Part shown: positions 4,666 through 12,193 of the stretch, piece after piece
Numbering within the stretch: the stretch's first letter is position 1
Layout of the letters: every line of letters begins with the position of its first letter
From: an uncultured Pseudomonadota bacterium
GTDB lineage: Bacteria > Myxococcota_A > Polyangia > Fen-1088
Reading direction: 5' to 3'
DNA length: 64,000 nucleotides
Assembly (NCBI GenBank): GCA_963847705.1
Contig: CAWKBC010000017.1
Coordinates: forward strand, 224,001 to 288,000
Made by a program: the position numbers and the translations under genes
The notes under the pieces: model-generated
The model's database searches: none
What the model was told of the DNA's origin: nothing
What the model saw: only the letters and a program-made list of their open reading frames with translations

Positions 4666-5084
4666 TGGATCCGCGCCGACTCGGCGGGCTCGCAGTAACG
4701 ATGAAGCAGCCGCGTCAGCGCGTCGAAGTCAACCGGCTTGTAGAGCACGGTGACGTCCTCTCGCACGCCGATCATCTGGTCGTTGGCCGCCGTCATGATG
4801 ACCCGCGGGATCGACGCCAGTTTGGGCGACTTCTTGATCACCTTGAGCAGCTCGACCCCGTTCATGACCGGCATGAACAGATCGATCAGCATCAGCGCCG
4901 GGACCTCGTCCTCGAGCAGGAGCAGCGCTTCGCGCCCGTTGCCGGCGCAGATGGCCCGGTAGCCGCTGTCCTCGACGACATCGTTGATGGTCAGCGCCAC
5001 GTCATGGTCGTCCTCGACGATCAACACCGCGGGACGCAGGGTTGAGGTCGGACCGGGTCCGGCGGACGACGGTTTCGTGGCCAT
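4662..5084 (-). CDS. Single-domain response regulator (receiver)
   Basis: VLIVEDD, LIDLFMPVMNG, MTAA, KPVDF; start could be 5084 or 5093. Confidence 0.9.
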   Translation of the reverse strand: MATKPSSAGPGPTSTLRPAVLIVEDDHDVALTINDVVEDSGYRAICAGNGREALLLLEDEVPALMLIDLFMPVMNGVELLKVIKKSPKLASIPRVIMTAANDQMIGVREDVTVLYKPVDFDALTRLLHRYCEPAESARIQ

Positions 5085-5183
5085 TGGGTTCACGTGTGTG
5101 CGCTGCGCGGTCTGGCTTCGTGCTCTCTATAGATCCGAGATCGACCGGGATCAATGCTCCCAGACGTAAAAGCTGAAGCGTGA

Positions 5184-5330
5184 GACACCGAGATCATCCT
5201 CTTCGACGCCGCCTGCACCGCGAAGGATGGCAAGCCCTACCACAACACGTACACCTGGTACTTCCGCATGAGGCGGATCGGGTCGTCAGCGCGAGCGCCT
5301 TCTTCGACCCCCGTGACTTCGCCAAGCGGC
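5184..5330 (+). pseudogene. Fragment of a SnoaL/ketosteroid-isomerase-like (NTF2 fold) gene
   Basis: DTEIILFDAACTAKDGKPYHNTYTWYFRM, then a frameshift to DRVVSASAFFDPRDF; in-frame TGA directly upstream and no start codon. Confidence 0.6.
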
Positions 5331-5347
5331 CCGCCCTCCAAGTCCAG

Positions 5348-5421
<74 letters not shown>

Positions 5422-5728
5422 GTGCAAGTTATTTCGGTGAGTTACATCCGGAGCGTCGTGTGATGCTTTCGAGTCTGCACCCGACCTTCCTGTGCGCGGG
5501 CAGTTCTACCACCTGCCCAGCCGGCCGAGAAAGGTCGACTGACGCCGCGCCGTGGGGACCGACCGCGACGGCGGGAACACGGCGTTCGGTGGAGATAGGG
5601 CGGAGCGGGCCGCATTCAAGTCTCGTTCCTGGCCGGACGATGTACCGAGCGTCAGAATCGTGCCTTCGGCGGAAGGCCACGATAAGATGGCGAGATCCGC
5701 GGAGAACACCGGCGACCGACGAGAAATA

Positions 5729-6316
5729 ATGTCTAGGGGAGACAAACGGTGGATCGTCGCCGGCTCGGTCGTTGTGCTGACGGGACTGGGCTGGTTTGCG
5801 CTGCGGGATCGCGGGACCAGCGGGTCCGAGCGAGCAGACGGCGACGAGCTACACGGATTTGGATCGCGACCGTTCGCGGCGGCCGACGCCAGGCTCCCCC
5901 CACCGCCCGAGACGCCCGAGCTGCTCGCCAAACAGGTCGAGGGGGCGATGGGGCGCTGGCGAACGGCGATCCTGGTGAAGGATGCCCCTTCGGTCGTCGC
6001 GCTCGACCTGACGTTCCGCCAGATGCCGGACCGTTACAGGGCCGCGCTGGCCGCGATCGCCGAGAGCGATGAGAACGAGCGCGTGCGGGCCTTCTCCACC
6101 CGCGTGCTCGGGAAGCTCAAGAACGCGGCGGAGGCGCCGCTCTACCGTCGCCTGCTCACCGACAGGAGCCCCTTCGTCCGCCAGAATGCAGTTTGGGCGC
6201 TGGGGGAGCTCGGCTCTGCCGCGGGCCCGGCCGTCGCCGAGCTGCAGAAGGCCAGCGCCCACGATCCGGCGAACGACGTCCGCGCCGCCGCCCGGGCCGC
6301 CCTCGCCAAGCGCTAG
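5729..6316 (+). CDS. Membrane-anchored HEAT-repeat protein
   Basis: N-terminal TM segment; repeats VRAFSTRVLGKL, VRQNAVWALGEL, VRAAARAAL. Confidence 0.8.
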   Translation: MSRGDKRWIVAGSVVVLTGLGWFALRDRGTSGSERADGDELHGFGSRPFAAADARLPPPPETPELLAKQVEGAMGRWRTAILVKDAPSVVALDLTFRQMPDRYRAALAAIAESDENERVRAFSTRVLGKLKNAAEAPLYRRLLTDRSPFVRQNAVWALGELGSAAGPAVAELQKASAHDPANDVRAAARAALAKR

Positions 6317-6337
6317 CAGGAAGATCGGACCGTCATC

Positions 6338-6496
6338 GTGGCAAACAAAGCGAAACGAAAACCGACAGGACCGGCCAAGAAGGCCTGGCAGAAGCCGCGC
6401 ATCAAGAGTGGCCGCCTGTTCGAGTCGAACAGCCTGGCCTGCGGCAAGAACGGTCCCGGAATGGAATCGTGCGAGCAGTTCCCGAAGATGTCATGA
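6338..6496 (+). CDS. Putative RiPP precursor peptide (52 aa)
   Basis: Manual translation from GTG: MANKAKRKPTGPAKKAWQKPRIKSGRLFESNSLACGKNGPGMESCEQFPKMS*; WxxPxI leader motif; stop overlaps the next ATG (ATGA); upstream of PqqD and rSAM genes. Confidence 0.8.
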   Translation: MANKAKRKPTGPAKKAWQKPRIKSGRLFESNSLACGKNGPGMESCEQFPKMS

Positions 6497-7848
6497 CCAG
6501 ACCGGTCGCGGGCGGTTCCGAGAAGCTGACGCTTTCGCTTTCGCTTTCGCTTTCGATAGGGGGCATCGTCGGCTGCCTGGAGATCTCGGGGGCCCAGGCG
6601 GTCTTTCTCGAGCAGGTTCGGGCGCGCTACGGGGCGTTCATCCTGCCATCCGGCAGCCGCAGCGCCAGCGACTTCAGCCTGCGGCTGGCGCTGGAGCCGA
6701 GCGCCGCGCCCGGCGGCTCGGCTTCGAAGCGCCTGGCCGAGACCGAAGCGCACCCGTTGAAGGTCACGGTCAAGGGGTACGCCATCGCCGCCGAGCGGTG
6801 GGACTTTCGGGCGCGCCTCCAGGGACGTTCGACGCCGCGGTCGGTGCCGGGGCGCGGGATCAGTTATCGCGGCGAAGGTCGCTGTGAGGCCAGCCCGTTC
6901 GCGCTCGACTGCCTGCTGAGGGTGATCTACGCGACCCTGCTGCCGCGCGTGGGGGGGATGCTCATCCACGGCTGCGGCCTGCGGCACGCGGCGATCGGGG
7001 TGATCTTCCCGGGTGTGAGCGGCGCGGGGAAGAGCACTCTCGCGCGCAAGGCGCCGGACGCGGACGACGTGCTGTCAGACGAGCTGGTGGTGGTTCGCCG
7101 GCTGGACGATGGCTGGCGCGTGTACGGGACGCCGTTCTGGGGCGACTTCGCCCGCGGCGGCATCTCGATGCGCAGCTGGCCGCTGCGAACGGTGGCGTTC
7201 CTCAACCAGGCGCGCGAGGTGGCGATGACGCCGATCACCTCCTCGGATGCGACGCTGCGCCTGCTCGGCTGCTTCCTGGCCTTCACCACCGATCGCGCGT
7301 CGGTCGAGCGGAGCCTGGCCGTGGCCGTCCAGCTCTGCGCCGAGGTTCGCTCGGTCGAGGCGTCGCTGACCCGCGCGGCGCCCACGGCGATCGTGTTCCG
7401 CAAGCTCGCCCCGCACCTCGGGCCCGAGGTGACGCGCGCGGTGCCGCCTGCGAACGCGCGCGAGCTCATCTCCGAGTTCCGCGCGCTGCTGCGCAAGCAG
7501 CGGTCGTACTCCTTCAGGCCCAAAGGGACGGCGGGCGCCTGGCTCAAGAACGGCGAATCGCTCGCGGTCCAGACGCCCGGTCTCGGCGCGCCGCTCGGGC
7601 CGGGGGACGTCGTGCTGTCCTGGGTGCCCGGACCGACGCCCGACGAGGATGCCCTGGCCTGCCGCCGACTCTCGGCGGCGGGCGCGCGCGAGGCCGGGCA
7701 GGCCTGGATCGGGGGCGAGCTACTCGGCCGCGTCACCCTCGTCTCGCGCGACGGCAAGACCCTGCCGCTTCCGGGACGTGTCGCCGATCTGGCCCGCAGC
7801 TTCGGGCCGCTGGTCGCGATTCCCATGCTGAGGATGGCCGGACGATGA
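6493..7848 (+). CDS. HprK-related P-loop protein (ScmC-like) fused to a degenerate S24/S26 peptidase-like domain
   Basis: LIHGCG, GVSGAGKST Walker A, LSDE, GTPFWG; C-terminal SFRPKGT...GDVV...LLGRVTLVSRDG. Confidence 0.7.
   Translation: MTRPVAGGSEKLTLSLSLSLSIGGIVGCLEISGAQAVFLEQVRARYGAFILPSGSRSASDFSLRLALEPSAAPGGSASKRLAETEAHPLKVTVKGYAIAAERWDFRARLQGRSTPRSVPGRGISYRGEGRCEASPFALDCLLRVIYATLLPRVGGMLIHGCGLRHAAIGVIFPGVSGAGKSTLARKAPDADDVLSDELVVVRRLDDGWRVYGTPFWGDFARGGISMRSWPLRTVAFLNQAREVAMTPITSSDATLRLLGCFLAFTTDRASVERSLAVAVQLCAEVRSVEASLTRAAPTAIVFRKLAPHLGPEVTRAVPPANARELISEFRALLRKQRSYSFRPKGTAGAWLKNGESLAVQTPGLGAPLGPGDVVLSWVPGPTPDEDALACRRLSAAGAREAGQAWIGGELLGRVTLVSRDGKTLPLPGRVADLARSFGPLVAIPMLRMAGR
6531..6554 (+). 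repeat. (GCTTTC)x4 in-frame tandem repeat
   Basis: gctttcgctttcgctttcgctttc, encoding an LS repeat. Confidence 0.85.
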
Positions 7849-8117
7849 CCTACAAGCGCGATCCCGGCCTCCCGTTCCAGAAGCTGGAGGAGGAGACCAT
7901 CGTGGTCGACCCGCGCACCCGCGAGGTCCACCTGCTGAACGACACCGCGGCGCGCGTCTGGGAGCTCCTGGCGTCGTCCTCGACGCTCGACGAGCTGACG
8001 GAGACGCTGGCCGAGGAGTACGACGCGCCTGCGGAGGCGGTGCGCGCGGGCGTCGAGGAGCTGCTGGCCGGGTTGCGCGACAAGGGCCTCCTGGTCGACG
8101 TGGCTGAGGCGGCCTGA
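7845..8117 (+). CDS. PqqD family peptide chaperone (RiPP recognition element)
   Basis: 90 aa: EETIVVDPRTREVHLLNDTAARVWELL...LAEEYDA...LRDKGLL. Confidence 0.9.
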   Translation: MTYKRDPGLPFQKLEEETIVVDPRTREVHLLNDTAARVWELLASSSTLDELTETLAEEYDAPAEAVRAGVEELLAGLRDKGLLVDVAEAA

Positions 8118-8119
8118 GC

Positions 8120-9406
8120 GTGGACTCCGCGCCGCGCTGCCAGGACGAGGCGATCCTGACCCCGTCGGGCGAGCACGCGGTGGTGAGCCAGCTGCAGAGC
8201 ATGGCCTACCAGCGGATGATCCCGCTCAACGTCTCGCTCGAGCTGACGCTCAAGTGCAACATCCGGTGCCTCCACTGCTACAACTTCGACCGCGACACCG
8301 CCGGCCCTGCCTGCGGCCCGCGCGACGCGGCGTCGCCGGCCGGGGCGCTGTCTCCGGAGCTGTCTCCGGAGCTGTCTCCGGAGCTGTCCTTGGAGGAGAT
8401 CTTCCGGGTGATGGGCGAGCTGCGCGCCGCGGGGACGCTGTTCCTCTCGCTCACCGGTGGCGAGGTCCTGAGCTCGCCGCATCTCTTCCCGGTGCTCGAC
8501 CGCGCGCGCGAGCTCAACCTGGCGGTCCAGATGCTGAGCAACGGGACGCTGCTCCGCCCCGGCGTGGCGGCGCGCCTGGCGGGCTATCGCAACCTCCTCG
8601 GCGTCAGCATCAGCGTCTACGGCGCGACGCCGGAGGTGCACGACGCCATCACGCAGATCCGCGGCTCCTGGCGGCGGACGCTCGACGGCGCCGAGCGGCT
8701 GCGCGCCCAGGGGGTGGCCGTGCGCCTCAAGCTGATCGTGATGCGCCCGAACGTGCATGAGGTGGGCGCGATGCGGGCGCTCTGCGACGCCCGCGGGTTC
8801 CCCTACCTGCTCGATCTCACGGTCACGGCGCGCCACGACGGCACCAAAGGGAGCCTGGCCATGCGGATCACCGAGGCCGAGCTGGCCGCGCTCTACCAGG
8901 GCCCGCTCCACGATCTCATTCCCAACGGCCGTCGCGCCGTCGACGAGGAGGCGTTCCCCTGCAACTGCGCGCGCGGAAACGCCGCCATCTCGGCGCGCGG
9001 CGACGTGTTTCCTTGCGTGTCGGTCCCCTGGAGGGCCGGCAACGTGCGCCAGCGGCCGTTCGGGGAGATCTGGCGGAGCTCGCCGGTGTTCGAACGAATC
9101 CGCGGGCTGAAGATCGCCGACTACCCGGCCTGTGCCCCCTGCCCCGACAAGTCCTTCTGCTCGCGGGATCGCGGCGCCGCCTACAACGCCTCGGGGAGCT
9201 ACACCGGGATCGACCCATTCGTCTGCGCCGCCGCCGGCGTCGCGCGGGCCGTCGCGGAGACGCGCCCCGGCGAGGCCGCGCGCCCCGGCGAGGCCGCGCG
9301 CCCCGGCGTGGCCGCGCGCCCCGGCGAGGCCGCGCGCCCCGGCGTGGACAACCGACCGCCGGCCGCGCCCGACGTCCGGCTGCCGCTGGCGGTCGCCGCC
9401 CGCTGA
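8120..9406 (+). CDS. Radical SAM/SPASM-domain peptide maturase
   Basis: ELTLKCNIRCLHCY (CxxxCxxC), LTGGE, SNGT; SPASM-like CNCARG...GDVFPC...GNV...CAPCPDKSFC...C. Confidence 0.92.
   Translation: MDSAPRCQDEAILTPSGEHAVVSQLQSMAYQRMIPLNVSLELTLKCNIRCLHCYNFDRDTAGPACGPRDAASPAGALSPELSPELSPELSLEEIFRVMGELRAAGTLFLSLTGGEVLSSPHLFPVLDRARELNLAVQMLSNGTLLRPGVAARLAGYRNLLGVSISVYGATPEVHDAITQIRGSWRRTLDGAERLRAQGVAVRLKLIVMRPNVHEVGAMRALCDARGFPYLLDLTVTARHDGTKGSLAMRITEAELAALYQGPLHDLIPNGRRAVDEEAFPCNCARGNAAISARGDVFPCVSVPWRAGNVRQRPFGEIWRSSPVFERIRGLKIADYPACAPCPDKSFCSRDRGAAYNASGSYTGIDPFVCAAAGVARAVAETRPGEAARPGEAARPGVAARPGEAARPGVDNRPPAAPDVRLPLAVAAR
8347..8388 (+). repeat. 12-bp tandem repeat (GCTGTCTCCGGA)x3.5 inside the rSAM gene
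   Basis: Encodes LSPE-LSPE-LSPE-LS. Confidence 0.85.
9261..9346 (+). repeat. 18-bp tandem repeat (CGCGCCCCGGCGWGGCCG)x~4.8 at the 3' end of the rSAM gene
   Basis: Encodes RPG(E/V)AA repeats. Confidence 0.85.
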
Positions 9407-9457
9407 GCGCTCTTTCTTGTCGACGGACCGTCGTCAGATTTATGGTCGGTGACCGCC

Positions 9458-9961
9458 ATGCCGCCGCTCGTCCCCGTCGTGGAGGTCAAACAGACGATGG
9501 CGGGGGGCGAGAAGCGCTTCGACTGCCTGCGCCTCGCCGGCGGCGCCGGGCACGCCGTTCTGCTCTGGATCACGCCGGCGCCGATGCGCGTTCATGGCGT
9601 CGAGCTGCCGGCGGGGACCATCAGCTTCGGGCACTTCTGGACCAATCGGTTCTACAACGTCTACCACTGGCTCGACGCCGACCGCCGGACGCTGGGGTTC
9701 TATTTCAACCTGGCCGACCGAACGCAAATCGGCGAGGCCGAGCTCGTGTGGCGCGATCTGGTGGTGGATGTGCTGGCGACCCCGGCCGGCCGGCTGGAGG
9801 TCCTCGACGAGGATGAGCTGCCCGTCCTCGTCGACCCGGAGGTGGCGGCCCACATCGCCGCCGGCAAAGCGGCGATTCTGGGCGCGCCGACTCTGCTGAT
9901 GGCGGAGATCGAGACCGCCTCCCGGGCGCTGTTCCCGCTGGCCTTTCCAGCGTCCGGTTAA
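9458..9961 (+). CDS. DUF402 domain protein
   Basis: RFYNVYHW, GFYFNLA, WRDLVVDVL, LEVLDEDEL motifs. Confidence 0.75.
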   Translation: MPPLVPVVEVKQTMAGGEKRFDCLRLAGGAGHAVLLWITPAPMRVHGVELPAGTISFGHFWTNRFYNVYHWLDADRRTLGFYFNLADRTQIGEAELVWRDLVVDVLATPAGRLEVLDEDELPVLVDPEVAAHIAAGKAAILGAPTLLMAEIETASRALFPLAFPASG

Positions 9962-10905
9962 GGGAGCTCGACCACCACGGGCTCGCGCGCGATCGCCGAC
10001 AGTGAGAATCCGCCGACGAGCGCGGCGGCCGGCAGCGACCGGCCGGGAGGACGAAGACCTGCCGAGGCGGCCAGCGCTCCCACCACGGTCTCGGGCGCCA
10101 CCCCCCGATCGCGCAGCGAGGCGAGCGTCGCCGGGCGCGTCCGCTTCGCCAGCCGCTCGCCGCCGGGCGTGACCACCAGCGGAACGTGTGCGAAGGCCGG
10201 CGGGGTCAGCTCGAGCGCGCGGTAAAGCGCGATCTGCCGCGGGGTCGAGCGCAGCAGATCGTCGCCGCGCACGACGCGCGTCACCTGCATCGCCGCGTCG
10301 TCGACGACCACGGCCAGCTGGTACGCGGCGGTGCCGTCGGCGCGGCGCAGGACGAAGTCGTCGACGCCACCCGCCTCGCTGGTCACCGCGCCATGAACCT
10401 CGTCGACGAAGTCGATCCGTTGCCCGCGGCCCACGAACCGCACGGCCGGCGCTCTCCCCTGGGCCTCCGCGCGCGCCGTCACGGCGGCGGGGTCGGTGTC
10501 GCGGCAGGTCCCGGGGTAGCGCGGCTCTGCCGCGGCGTCGTCATGCGGCGCGCTGGCGGCGCGGGCCACGTCGGCGCGCGAGCAGGCGCAGAGGAACGCC
10601 CGTTGCGAGACCAGCAGCCGCTCGATCGCCGCGTCGTAGTCTCGGGTGCGCTCGCTCTGTCGGTAGGGCGCGAACGGACCGCCGCGATCGGGCCCCTCGT
10701 CCCAGTCGAGCCCCAACCAGGCGAGATCCTCGAGCTGTCGCCGCTCGGCGTCGGGCTGCAGGCGTGCCCGATCGAGATCTTCGATCCGCATCAGGAAAGC
10801 GCCCCCCGCGCTGCGGGCGTCGAGCCAGGCGAAGAGCGCGGTCCGCGCGTTGCCGAGGTGAAGCTGGCCGGTGGGGCTGGGGGCGAAGCGGCCGCGGACC
10901 GGCAT
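9958..10905 (-). CDS. gluQ: Glutamyl-Q tRNA(Asp) synthetase
   Basis: GRFAPSPTGQLHLGN, RIEDLD, YQLAVVVDD, RGDDLL, RLAKR; 315 aa with no anticodon-binding domain. Confidence 0.9.
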   Translation of the reverse strand: MPVRGRFAPSPTGQLHLGNARTALFAWLDARSAGGAFLMRIEDLDRARLQPDAERRQLEDLAWLGLDWDEGPDRGGPFAPYRQSERTRDYDAAIERLLVSQRAFLCACSRADVARAASAPHDDAAAEPRYPGTCRDTDPAAVTARAEAQGRAPAVRFVGRGQRIDFVDEVHGAVTSEAGGVDDFVLRRADGTAAYQLAVVVDDAAMQVTRVVRGDDLLRSTPRQIALYRALELTPPAFAHVPLVVTPGGERLAKRTRPATLASLRDRGVAPETVVGALAASAGLRPPGRSLPAAALVGGFSLSAIAREPVVVELP

Positions 10906-11447
10906 CAGTAGACGATCAGCGATTCGATCTGCGTCCCCGCCAGGCGGTCCCGGCCGCGCAGAAAGCCGAGCTCGACGGCGAACGCCAGGACGCCGACCTC
11001 GCCGCCGAGCTCGCGGACCAGCTCCAGCGTCGCCAGCGCGGTCCCGCCCGTCGCCAGCAGATCGTCGACGATGGCCACGCGCGCCCCCTCCACCACGGCG
11101 TCGGCGTGGATCTCCAGCGTGTCGGTGCCGTACTCGAGCGCGTAGCTGCGGCTGGCGGTCCGGAACGGGAGCTTCCCCGGCTTCCGCACCGGCGCGAACC
11201 CGATCCCCAGGGCAGCGGCCACCGGGGCGCCGAAGATGAAGCCCCGCGACTCGACGGCCACGACAACCTCCGGCCGATGCGGCGCCAGCCGCTCCGCCAG
11301 CAGCTCGACGGTCTGTTTGAACGCCGGGCCGTCGCCCATCAGCGGCGTCAGATCGTAGAACAGGATTCCCGGCTTCGGGAAGTCGGGGATGTCGCGGACG
11401 CGGGCGCGCAGCAGCGCCAGGCGCGGATCTTCTGTGGGCGCGCTCAT
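10905..11447 (-). CDS. apt: Adenine phosphoribosyltransferase
   Basis: PDFPKPGILFYD, ESRGFIFG, RKPGKLP, YALEYG, VDDLLATGGT. Confidence 0.96.
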   Translation of the reverse strand: MSAPTEDPRLALLRARVRDIPDFPKPGILFYDLTPLMGDGPAFKQTVELLAERLAPHRPEVVVAVESRGFIFGAPVAAALGIGFAPVRKPGKLPFRTASRSYALEYGTDTLEIHADAVVEGARVAIVDDLLATGGTALATLELVRELGGEVGVLAFAVELGFLRGRDRLAGTQIESLIVY

Positions 11448-12193
11448 GGTGTCTCCCCCAGCGGCGGTAGGTAGCTCATCGGGTCACGAGGAATTTGCCC
11501 GCGTCGGACCTCGAAGTGCAAGTGCGGTCCCGTGGCGTGCCCGCTCTGGCCGACCAGCGCGATGCGGTCACCAGCCCGGACGGACTGCCCCTGGGAGACC
11601 AGCAGGACGGAGTTGTGCGCGTACGCGGTCAGCAGATCTCCCGCGTGCTTCAGCACGATCAGATTCCCGTAGCCGCGGATGCCGGCCCCCGCATAAACCA
11701 CGCGGCCGTCGGCCGCCGCGAACACGGGCGTGCCGACCGGCGCCGGCAGATCGATCCCCTCGTGGGGCTTGCCCCAGCGGGCGCCGAACGGAGAGCCGAT
11801 CAGGATGTGGATCGTCGTCAGCGGCCAGCGGAGCGCGGGGGCCGAGCCCAGCCCCAGATCGGCCGCGGTCGCGGCGCCGGCGGTGGGGTCCGGCGCTGCT
11901 TTCGGCGCGTCCCCGGTCATCAGGAACAACAGCGTCCCCGGCTTCACCCGCGCCGCGCTCTCGAAGCCATTCAGCTCCAGGATGTCCTCGGGCGGGACGC
12001 CCGCGCGCCTGGCGATGAGGTCCAGCGTCTCCCCCGCCTCGACCACGTACCAGTGTCCGGGCGGGTTCGTGGGATGCATCGGCGGCCGGTGGCCCTGACA
12101 TCCCAGCAAGAGCAGCAGGCCCACCCAGGCGACGGCCCGGGGGCCCGGGACGGCCGCCCGGAAGCGGAGACTAGGCTGCTGGCGCGCCGCCAC
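11444..12193 (-). CDS. nlpD: LysM + M23 peptidase lipoprotein (NlpD-like)
   Basis: Lipobox LLLGC; LysM VEAGETLDLIA; M23 motifs HEGID, YAHN, GPHLHFE; downstream of pcm; start uncertain. Confidence 0.8.
   Translation of the reverse strand: MAARQQPSLRFRAAVPGPRAVAWVGLLLLLGCQGHRPPMHPTNPPGHWYVVEAGETLDLIARRAGVPPEDILELNGFESAARVKPGTLLFLMTGDAPKAAPDPTAGAATAADLGLGSAPALRWPLTTIHILIGSPFGARWGKPHEGIDLPAPVGTPVFAAADGRVVYAGAGIRGYGNLIVLKHAGDLLTAYAHNSVLLVSQGQSVRAGDRIALVGQSGHATGPHLHFEVRRGQIPRDPMSYLPPLGETP

Follow-up and report, generated by a model that had tools for sequence, protein, structure and literature searches.

A conserved 52-residue putative RiPP precursor encoded beside a radical SAM/SPASM enzyme and a kinase fused to an apparently dead signal-peptidase-like domain in Polyangia

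Several described systems share parts with the locus analysed here. According to the part of its description available (PMC13381572, 2026), the LPP system (lppA/K/B/S/D/N) combines a leader motif with genes for a discrete RRE, a kinase resembling HprK and a signal peptidase I (SpI) of archaeal type with Ser-His-Asp, together with an NTP transferase and an exporter resembling MsbA. LPP leaders (YxxP...FET) are cut after the Thr by the SpI-type peptidase, core Ser3 is phosphorylated (FETxxS), and the C-termini are variable; the same source defines [Y/W]xxPx[L/V/I/F/A] as the motif for discrete RREs, and its available text contains no mention of 'radical', 'rSAM' or 'SPASM'. HprK-family kinases (PadeK, PsmK) phosphorylate the terminal Ser of paeninodin and pseudomycoidin, whose pathways have a WxxP leader and a discrete RRE, as far as the accessible part of PMC6993621 describes them. 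Precord et al. (2023; PMC10288494, consulted in part) list six precursors in their supplement as SSN group 16 under 'Other Uncharacterized', place these look-alikes of the window's peptide among putative sacti- and ranthipeptides, and predict sactisynthases for six uncharacterised groups, which may or may not include group 16. The part of PMC13692751 available concerns a different system. Our literature search, with subscription papers and bioRxiv supplements outside its reach, returned no paper that describes what this cassette makes; SynChlorMet combined with radical SAM gave none, and for the Scm names and TIGR numbers the matches listed were all acronyms with other meanings.

The window, i.e., the whole 64,000-nucleotide stretch of contig CAWKBC010000017.1 that was analysed, contains the cassette summarized in Table 1. 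HEAT, DUF402 and response regulator genes flank it, and no transporter or nucleotidyltransferase gene was seen in the cassette itself.

Table 1. Features of the precursor locus in the window
Feature	Position	Strand	Basis or conserved elements
HEAT-repeat protein, 195 aa, hydrophobic N-terminal stretch	5729..6316	+	Pfam HEAT_2 E 6e-15
Precursor peptide gene	6338..6496	+	GTG start, 52 codons, TGA; homology, codon bias, dN/dS
W17-Q-K-P20-R-I22, [Y/W]xxPx[L/V/I/F/A] RRE-binding motif	6386..6403	+	Over 39 rows, W17 invariant and P20 at 90% or more
F28-E-S-N-S-L-A34, conserved leader end, candidate cuts after A34 or S30	6419..6439	+	E29 invariant, L33 at least 90%
Putative core C35-S52, 18 residues	6440..6493	+	Conserved C35, G36, K37, C45, terminal Ser
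Kinase/signal-peptidase-I-like fusion, 451 aa	6493..7848	+	Motifs, fold matches, profiles
Signal-peptidase-I-like domain, C-terminal in the fusion, without catalytic Ser, His, Asp	about 7447-7845	+	Sequence profiles, motif states
PqqD-family RRE, 90 aa	7845..8117	+	Pfam PqqD E 8e-19; TIGR04353 39 bits, cut-off 35
Radical SAM/SPASM maturase, 428 aa	8120..9406	+	Pfam Radical_SAM and SPASM

Comparison with these systems revealed partial likeness to each. The window shares its leader motif, discrete RRE, HprK-like kinase and SpI-type sequence with LPP, but has a radical SAM enzyme, two Cys, a terminal Ser, Leu at the Ser3 position and no transporter, and its SpI-type domain lacks all three catalytic residues. 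It resembles the paeninodin type in its WxxP leader, discrete RRE and HprK-family kinase with a terminal Ser as candidate target, whereas its metal-binding pair is D-E rather than the D-D of PsmK and a radical SAM enzyme is present; neither a lasso cyclase nor a B2 protease was found among the eight flanking proteins scanned. The fusion's best family match was ScmC of SynChlorMet, and the PqqD plus radical SAM/SPASM layout is also alike, but all four scores lay far below cut-off (ScmC TIGR04249, 42.9 against 125 bits; ScmD TIGR04248, 22.5/100; ScmE TIGR04250, 83.6/400; ScmF TIGR04251, 54.7/400), there is one radical SAM enzyme instead of two, and no precursor model matches. For the TIGR04352/TIGR04353 system (HPr-rel-A), the PqqD chaperone model exceeded its cut-off (Table 1) and HprK-related kinase A remained below it (19.2 vs 200 bits). 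Membership in LPP, SynChlorMet, HPr-rel-A and the lasso peptides was rejected, as it fails on defining features.

Compared by eye, the window's peptide is also similar to group 16 (PMC10288494, seen in part), whose precursors show YxxP, FETAALACGK, a later Cys, a terminal Ser and an RRE-associated radical SAM enzyme; two hits of our family profile, P0102 and P0125, carry the group 16 motif by the same kind of comparison. Group 16 members have Tyr leaders and a third Cys, and the published table gives no kinase or peptidase, whereas in the window the leader is of the Trp type, the Cys number two and the kinase–dead-peptidase fusion is encoded. Recognition and phosphorylation in the window would be like those of LPP and paeninodin, and the predicted cross-link like that of StsA/B-type systems. 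Judged by sequence comparison, the peptide is the precursor of an RRE/kinase/radical SAM pathway whose kind has been catalogued, with look-alikes in print, but is uncharacterised, and what is new here is the kinase fused to an apparently catalytically dead peptidase domain.

The sequence-only reading of this DNA had claimed a hidden 52-aa ORF masked by an over-extended 551-aa one, and this was confirmed. The peptide quoted there is the exact translation of the precursor gene, which lies in another frame within a 551-aa ORF with a TTG start (6193-7848). That ORF call is over-extended, since GC3 is 0.54 in its first 100 codons and 0.90 from ATG 6493 on; the start taken here is ATG 6493, which shares bases with the precursor stop (ATGA). 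In a homologue search all 38 candidates were precursor homologues (68-96% identity), and W17, L27-E29 and N31-N38 were invariant among the resulting 39 close rows. In the window and 29 loci, the block W17-G41 (25 codons) deviates from the majority base 55, 72 and 203 times at codon positions 1, 2 and 3, and differing codons were synonymous in 212 cases and non-synonymous in 89. Over 18 close loci, precursor residues 16-52 had a dN/dS of 0.08, the lowest among six regions (kinase, 0.14; radical SAM enzyme, 0.20; RRE, 0.26; HEAT protein, 0.28; peptidase domain, 0.29), as a pooled pairwise estimate over related loci that are not independent. Overlap with the mechanically called 551-aa ORF, and a precursor GC3 of 0.77 that lies under the 0.86-0.97 of its neighbours, would suit a chance frame within a long kinase ORF, but the codon-position bias and synonymous excess across loci, the dN/dS of 0.08 and the 91 clusters that make up the family refute this explanation, to which we give practically no credence. 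By these measures the 52-codon ORF is a real, strongly conserved gene. Pfam and NCBIfam had no model for the precursor, for three distant members or for a paralogous precursor of the same genome, and the database names of 10 distant family members were uninformative. A promoter and terminator scan of 5000-11500 gave no promoters and two terminator-like sites, the same as in shuffled sequence.

Synteny analysis showed that 29 of 30 related loci from genome contigs have the gene order of the window, in which a HEAT-repeat gene precedes the precursor and an HPr-kinase-like gene comes after it. The titles of these 29 name Polyangia, Myxococcales, Myxococcota or an unclassified proteobacterium; the sequence-only reading had staked the ORF on its being conserved in orthologous loci, and it is kept in these 29. 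The exception (L033) was a chance match without a cassette and was excluded from later counts. Counted with profile HMMs, the kinase, peptidase domain and HEAT gene were present in 29/29 of these Polyangia-type loci, and the RRE and radical SAM genes in 27/29, the remaining two ending at contig edges. Of 29 loci retrieved from distant genomes, 28 had at least one gene for a kinase, radical SAM enzyme, RRE or peptidase no more than 1.5 kb from the precursor; the HEAT gene was not seen in these loci. The HEAT gene is probably co-transcribed, and the hydrophobic stretch of its product is likely a membrane anchor. The claim that the ORF encodes a RiPP-type precursor, conserved, equipped with an RRE motif and neighboured by PqqD and radical SAM/SPASM genes, is supported by this synteny and by the Pfam matches: a short conserved ORF with a leader motif adjoins an RRE and a radical SAM/SPASM gene, as in RRE-dependent radical SAM RiPP loci. 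The 52-aa peptide is almost certainly the substrate of the neighbouring cassette.

Loss of the catalytic peptidase residues in the window and in 19/19 close loci could also be read as decay of the cassette in this lineage, with the peptidase dying first and no product made. Purifying selection acts on all six tested regions across the 18 loci, however, most strongly on the precursor, and the kinase and radical SAM motifs are intact, so that decay seems highly improbable. A 6-bp tandem repeat giving LSLSLSLS near the kinase start (window:6530-6556), and tandem repeats in the radical SAM gene (SPEL three times and PGEAAR-type; window:8340-8390 and 9270-9345), are missing or shorter in relatives.

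To define the family, we searched 1.84 billion representatives with a profile of the precursor (E up to 0.001), which gave 91 hits, each a cluster at 50% identity; removal of four proteins longer than 140 aa left 87 short rows. The family follows the pattern [WY]xxP...FExxxL[AS]CGK-x7-C-x6-Ser-stop. Exactly two Cys occur in 69/87 short representatives, and the commonest geometry, C-x9-C-x6-end (Cys 10 apart, the first 17 from the end), accounts for 40/87. An alignment of 72 rows that we chose from the 87 has only E29, C35 and C45 invariant, with P20, L33 and K37 at 90% or more. The family is wide: beyond these clusters, 44 of the 301 genomes sampled from the phylum contain a match to its profile, and the Tyr-leader branch has at least 579 metagenome matches (among 601 stretches). 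Of the 79 metagenome loci kept, 34 have genes of the cassette, in the typical case a precursor, an intact peptidase, a kinase, an RRE and a radical SAM enzyme; the 45 without any, a point against the preferred reading, comprise short contigs and orphan precursors, some of the latter on long contigs.

Orphan precursors in L042, L047, L049, L051, L055, L068 and L075 have no maturase within up to 8 kb and adjoin dnaX-ybaB-recR or a CHAD/HD phosphatase-like gene; L042 and L037 each hold two precursors. Tyr-leader precursors are neighboured by a protein of about 610 aa that has an apparent signal peptide and matches nothing in Pfam (L055:8391-10241, L068:8354-10183 and some 30 others among L034-L112); this applies to full cassettes (L073, L088, L089, L096) as well as to orphan precursors. 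It is absent from the window's genome and is possibly a partner or carrier of the peptide. One distant cassette (L076:4724-7800) is preceded upstream by genes for an ABC-2 transporter and a nucleotidyltransferase (NTP_transf_5), an arrangement shared with the clusters for LPP and pseudomycoidin.

The PqqD-type RRE would grip the WQKPRI leader motif. Profile searches matched the window's RRE to the TbiB1, PbaB1, LppB and TfuB1 structures. D70 of LppB binds the Tyr of YxxP, and the Trp-binding PbaB1 has Gln there (PMC13381572, in its available part). The RRE column aligned to LppB D70 holds Asp in 20/21 Tyr-leader and 4/23 Trp-leader loci, a contrast confounded by ancestry because the Trp leaders form one lineage; one further row had no parsed leader, and the window has Gly69 in this column. 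This covariation fits direct leader recognition, subject to the same confounding, and binding of the precursor leader by the RRE is predicted as very probable.

Motif and structural analyses of the fusion indicated that its N-terminal part is an HprK/PEPCK-fold kinase. H159, the P-loop GxSGxGKST and D196-E197 are intact, and an alignment of 54 rows shows no change in the His, the P-loop or the Asp; the AlphaFold model (pLDDT 89) gave Foldseek matches to PEPCK (E 1e-6) and HprK/P (E 3e-3 to 4e-3). The precursor ends in Ser in 29/29 close loci, 78/87 family representatives and 77/79 metagenome loci, about ten times the background of the window's genome, where 150 of 1803 long ORFs (8%) are Ser-ended. 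Overlap of the precursor stop with the kinase start was considered as the cause and rejected, as it fixes the third base only and the terminal Ser persists where the two do not overlap. By analogy with the paeninodin and pseudomycoidin kinases, we consider it fairly likely that the HPr-kinase-like domain phosphorylates Ser52. The 27 readable precursors of 29 distant loci comprise 19 ending in Ser, four with Ser second-to-last and four with neither. These last four adjoin kinases all the same, three of which have D-D instead of D-E, and the Ser-ended precursors of L088, L089 and L096 occur with an RRE and a radical SAM gene but without a kinase; both observations count against Ser52 phosphorylation.

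The locus combines core Cys conserved in the 72 rows with a SPASM-type radical SAM enzyme, the gene content of sactipeptide and ranthipeptide systems. The CxxxCxxC motif of the enzyme is intact, and in the Polyangia-type loci its SPASM domain has seven Cys and an Asp at one usual Cys position, a pattern that would suit an open iron site without being diagnostic of one. Its best solved relatives are PqqE and then SkfB. Among the matches listed, it lies below every NCBIfam cut-off: AhbD (115 bits), NirJ2 (102) and MftC (94), none of them a thioether enzyme, score highest and stand ahead of the sactisynthase models StsB (82.6/625), AlbA (60.1/850) and SkfB (39.4/300), all far below cut-off. This ranking speaks against thioether chemistry, although such low family scores are not decisive. 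The ACGX-system and WGK-system, considered because of the ACGK string, were rejected, as their radical SAM models reach only 48.7/400 and 75/650.

Both Cys had been proposed as thioether donors, with Asn, Glu, Ser or Met as possible acceptors or phosphorylation sites. Both putative donors are invariant in the 72 rows. The proposed acceptors are not: N38, M42, E43, S44 and M51 vary in the wider family, so that none of them is a conserved site for linkage or phosphorylation. Thioether acceptors in sactipeptides need not be conserved, and the residues between C35 and C45 are not conserved, unlike the Cys themselves; this is the pattern expected for thioether donors with unconserved acceptors. The only conserved candidate acceptors are G36 and K37. 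The radical SAM/SPASM enzyme would join Cys35 and/or Cys45 by a thioether to carbons of core residues, a prediction that we hold to be somewhat likely.

A different role for the Cys has to be weighed, in which they form a disulfide or bind metal and the enzyme instead acts on Lys37 or Gly36, or decarboxylates the terminal (phospho)Ser in the manner of MftC or AhbD. AhbD and MftC are decarboxylating enzymes, and their place among the top family scores fits this explanation, as do weak matches to a cytosylglucuronate decarboxylase, the near-fixed Cys-Cys spacing, and the presence of G36 in 62/84 and K37 in 81/84 representatives, although the search profile favours K37 and so raises its count. 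On the other side, K37 is missing from distant homologues that adjoin the same enzymes and keep both Cys, and full-length similarity to MftC has been reported to mispredict the function of StsB (PMC10288494, in the part available). We regard this alternative as rather unlikely, and a thioether made by the radical SAM enzyme as the preferred reading of the conserved Cys.

Profile analysis of the last 130 residues of the fusion showed that they align with archaeal/SEC11-type signal peptidase I. A profile of the family's peptidases matches SEC11 (E 2e-9), whereas the window's own domain scores no family; Foldseek with the fusion model gave no peptidase among the matches listed. The assignment of the fused domain to the signal peptidases is therefore based on sequence profiles. 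The sequence-only reading had mentioned neither this domain nor the printed listing of the family as uncharacterised. The catalytic motifs separate two groups of loci: 10 sister loci have GxSM in 10/10, HR in 10/10 and KGD in 9/10 (one cut by a contig end), whereas 19 close loci have GxSM in 0/19, KGD in 0/19 and HR in 8/19, and the window lacks all three. In a kinase-domain tree of 35 rows, whose root is unsure and whose outgroups are long, one branch (99/96) splits the intact and dead states. Loss of the catalytic residues is the likelier direction of change, because the unfused distant peptidases are intact. The dead domain is under purifying selection similar to that on the RRE (dN/dS 0.29 vs 0.26) and probably survives as a docking surface.

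The signal-peptidase rule calls for small residues at -3 and -1. Position 32 is small in 84/84 representatives and position 34 is Ala or Ser in 74/84, which makes SLA|C a candidate cut, and we marginally favour cleavage there in lineages with an intact peptidase, in which the fused SpI domain would remove the leader. The leader end FESNSLAC is identical in loci with intact and dead peptidases. The proposal that the leader runs to about SLA therefore agrees with the small-residue pattern, whereas the LPP precedent would place the cut after F-E-S; FES|N is the second candidate because LPP leaders are cut after F-E-T.

This precedent could extend to an LPP-like route, in which the cut falls after F28-E29-S30, the kinase phosphorylates the inner S32 instead of Ser52, and the radical SAM cross-link is an addition. 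Such a route would draw on the LPP order of cleavage by an SpI-type peptidase and phosphorylation of core Ser3 (PMC13381572, as available), on Ser or Thr at position 30 in 54/84 rows and on the invariance of S32 in the 39 close homologues. However, the position of LPP Ser3 corresponds to Leu33 here (Leu in 76/84), position 32 is Ala in 32/84, position 30 is Arg, Gln or Lys in 13/84, and the terminal Ser is far better conserved. We find the LPP-like route distinctly unlikely and retain Ser52 as the preferred phosphorylation site.

As for the lineage of the window, the product may keep its leader or be cut by one of two intact peptidases encoded elsewhere. Both are of the type of the fused domain and were identified in the window's genome, which is 85% complete; the first belongs to a paralogous cassette on contig C32, the second lies on C30, and cutting in trans is thus possible. 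A bolder alternative, which we hold to be unlikely, is that leader cleavage has been dropped: the pseudo-enzyme would clamp FESNSLA and the RRE onto the kinase, and the full-length 52-mer, linked from C45 to G36 or K37 and phosphorylated at Ser52, would serve as a switchable signal in the cell or at the membrane-anchored HEAT protein without being exported.

The C32 cassette (L001:6632-12766; about 268.6-274.8 kb of contig C32 of genome G000, minus strand) encodes a peptidase-C25-family protein, an RRE, a radical SAM/SPASM enzyme, a precursor, an HprK-like kinase and the intact SpI-like peptidase, and has as its neighbour, on the opposite strand, a protein of very large size that is predicted to be secreted. 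Its precursor (L001:8312-8494) has 60 aa, a YxxP leader, three Cys and a terminal Ser. The C30 gene (L143:6970-7482, minus strand) is a stand-alone SpI-like gene with the Ser, His and Asp motifs and with no RRE, kinase or radical SAM gene nearby. A further locus on contig C41 (L002:3969-8319) has a methyltransferase-like gene and a membrane protein gene, surrounded by an RRE-kinase fusion and two RRE genes that stand alone, and a scan of it gave no short YxxP or WxxP ORF.

The full mechanism, comprising RRE recognition, a radical SAM thioether, Ser52 phosphorylation and the proposed fate of the peptidase, has in our estimate an even chance of being correct as a whole. As a minimal four-gene cassette, the locus would be easy to co-express. 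Lineages with intact and dead peptidases but an identical leader end provide a natural control for the cut site and for the need of cutting. If the mechanism is true, the combination of a radical SAM cross-link with Ser phosphorylation would represent a new type of RiPP product.
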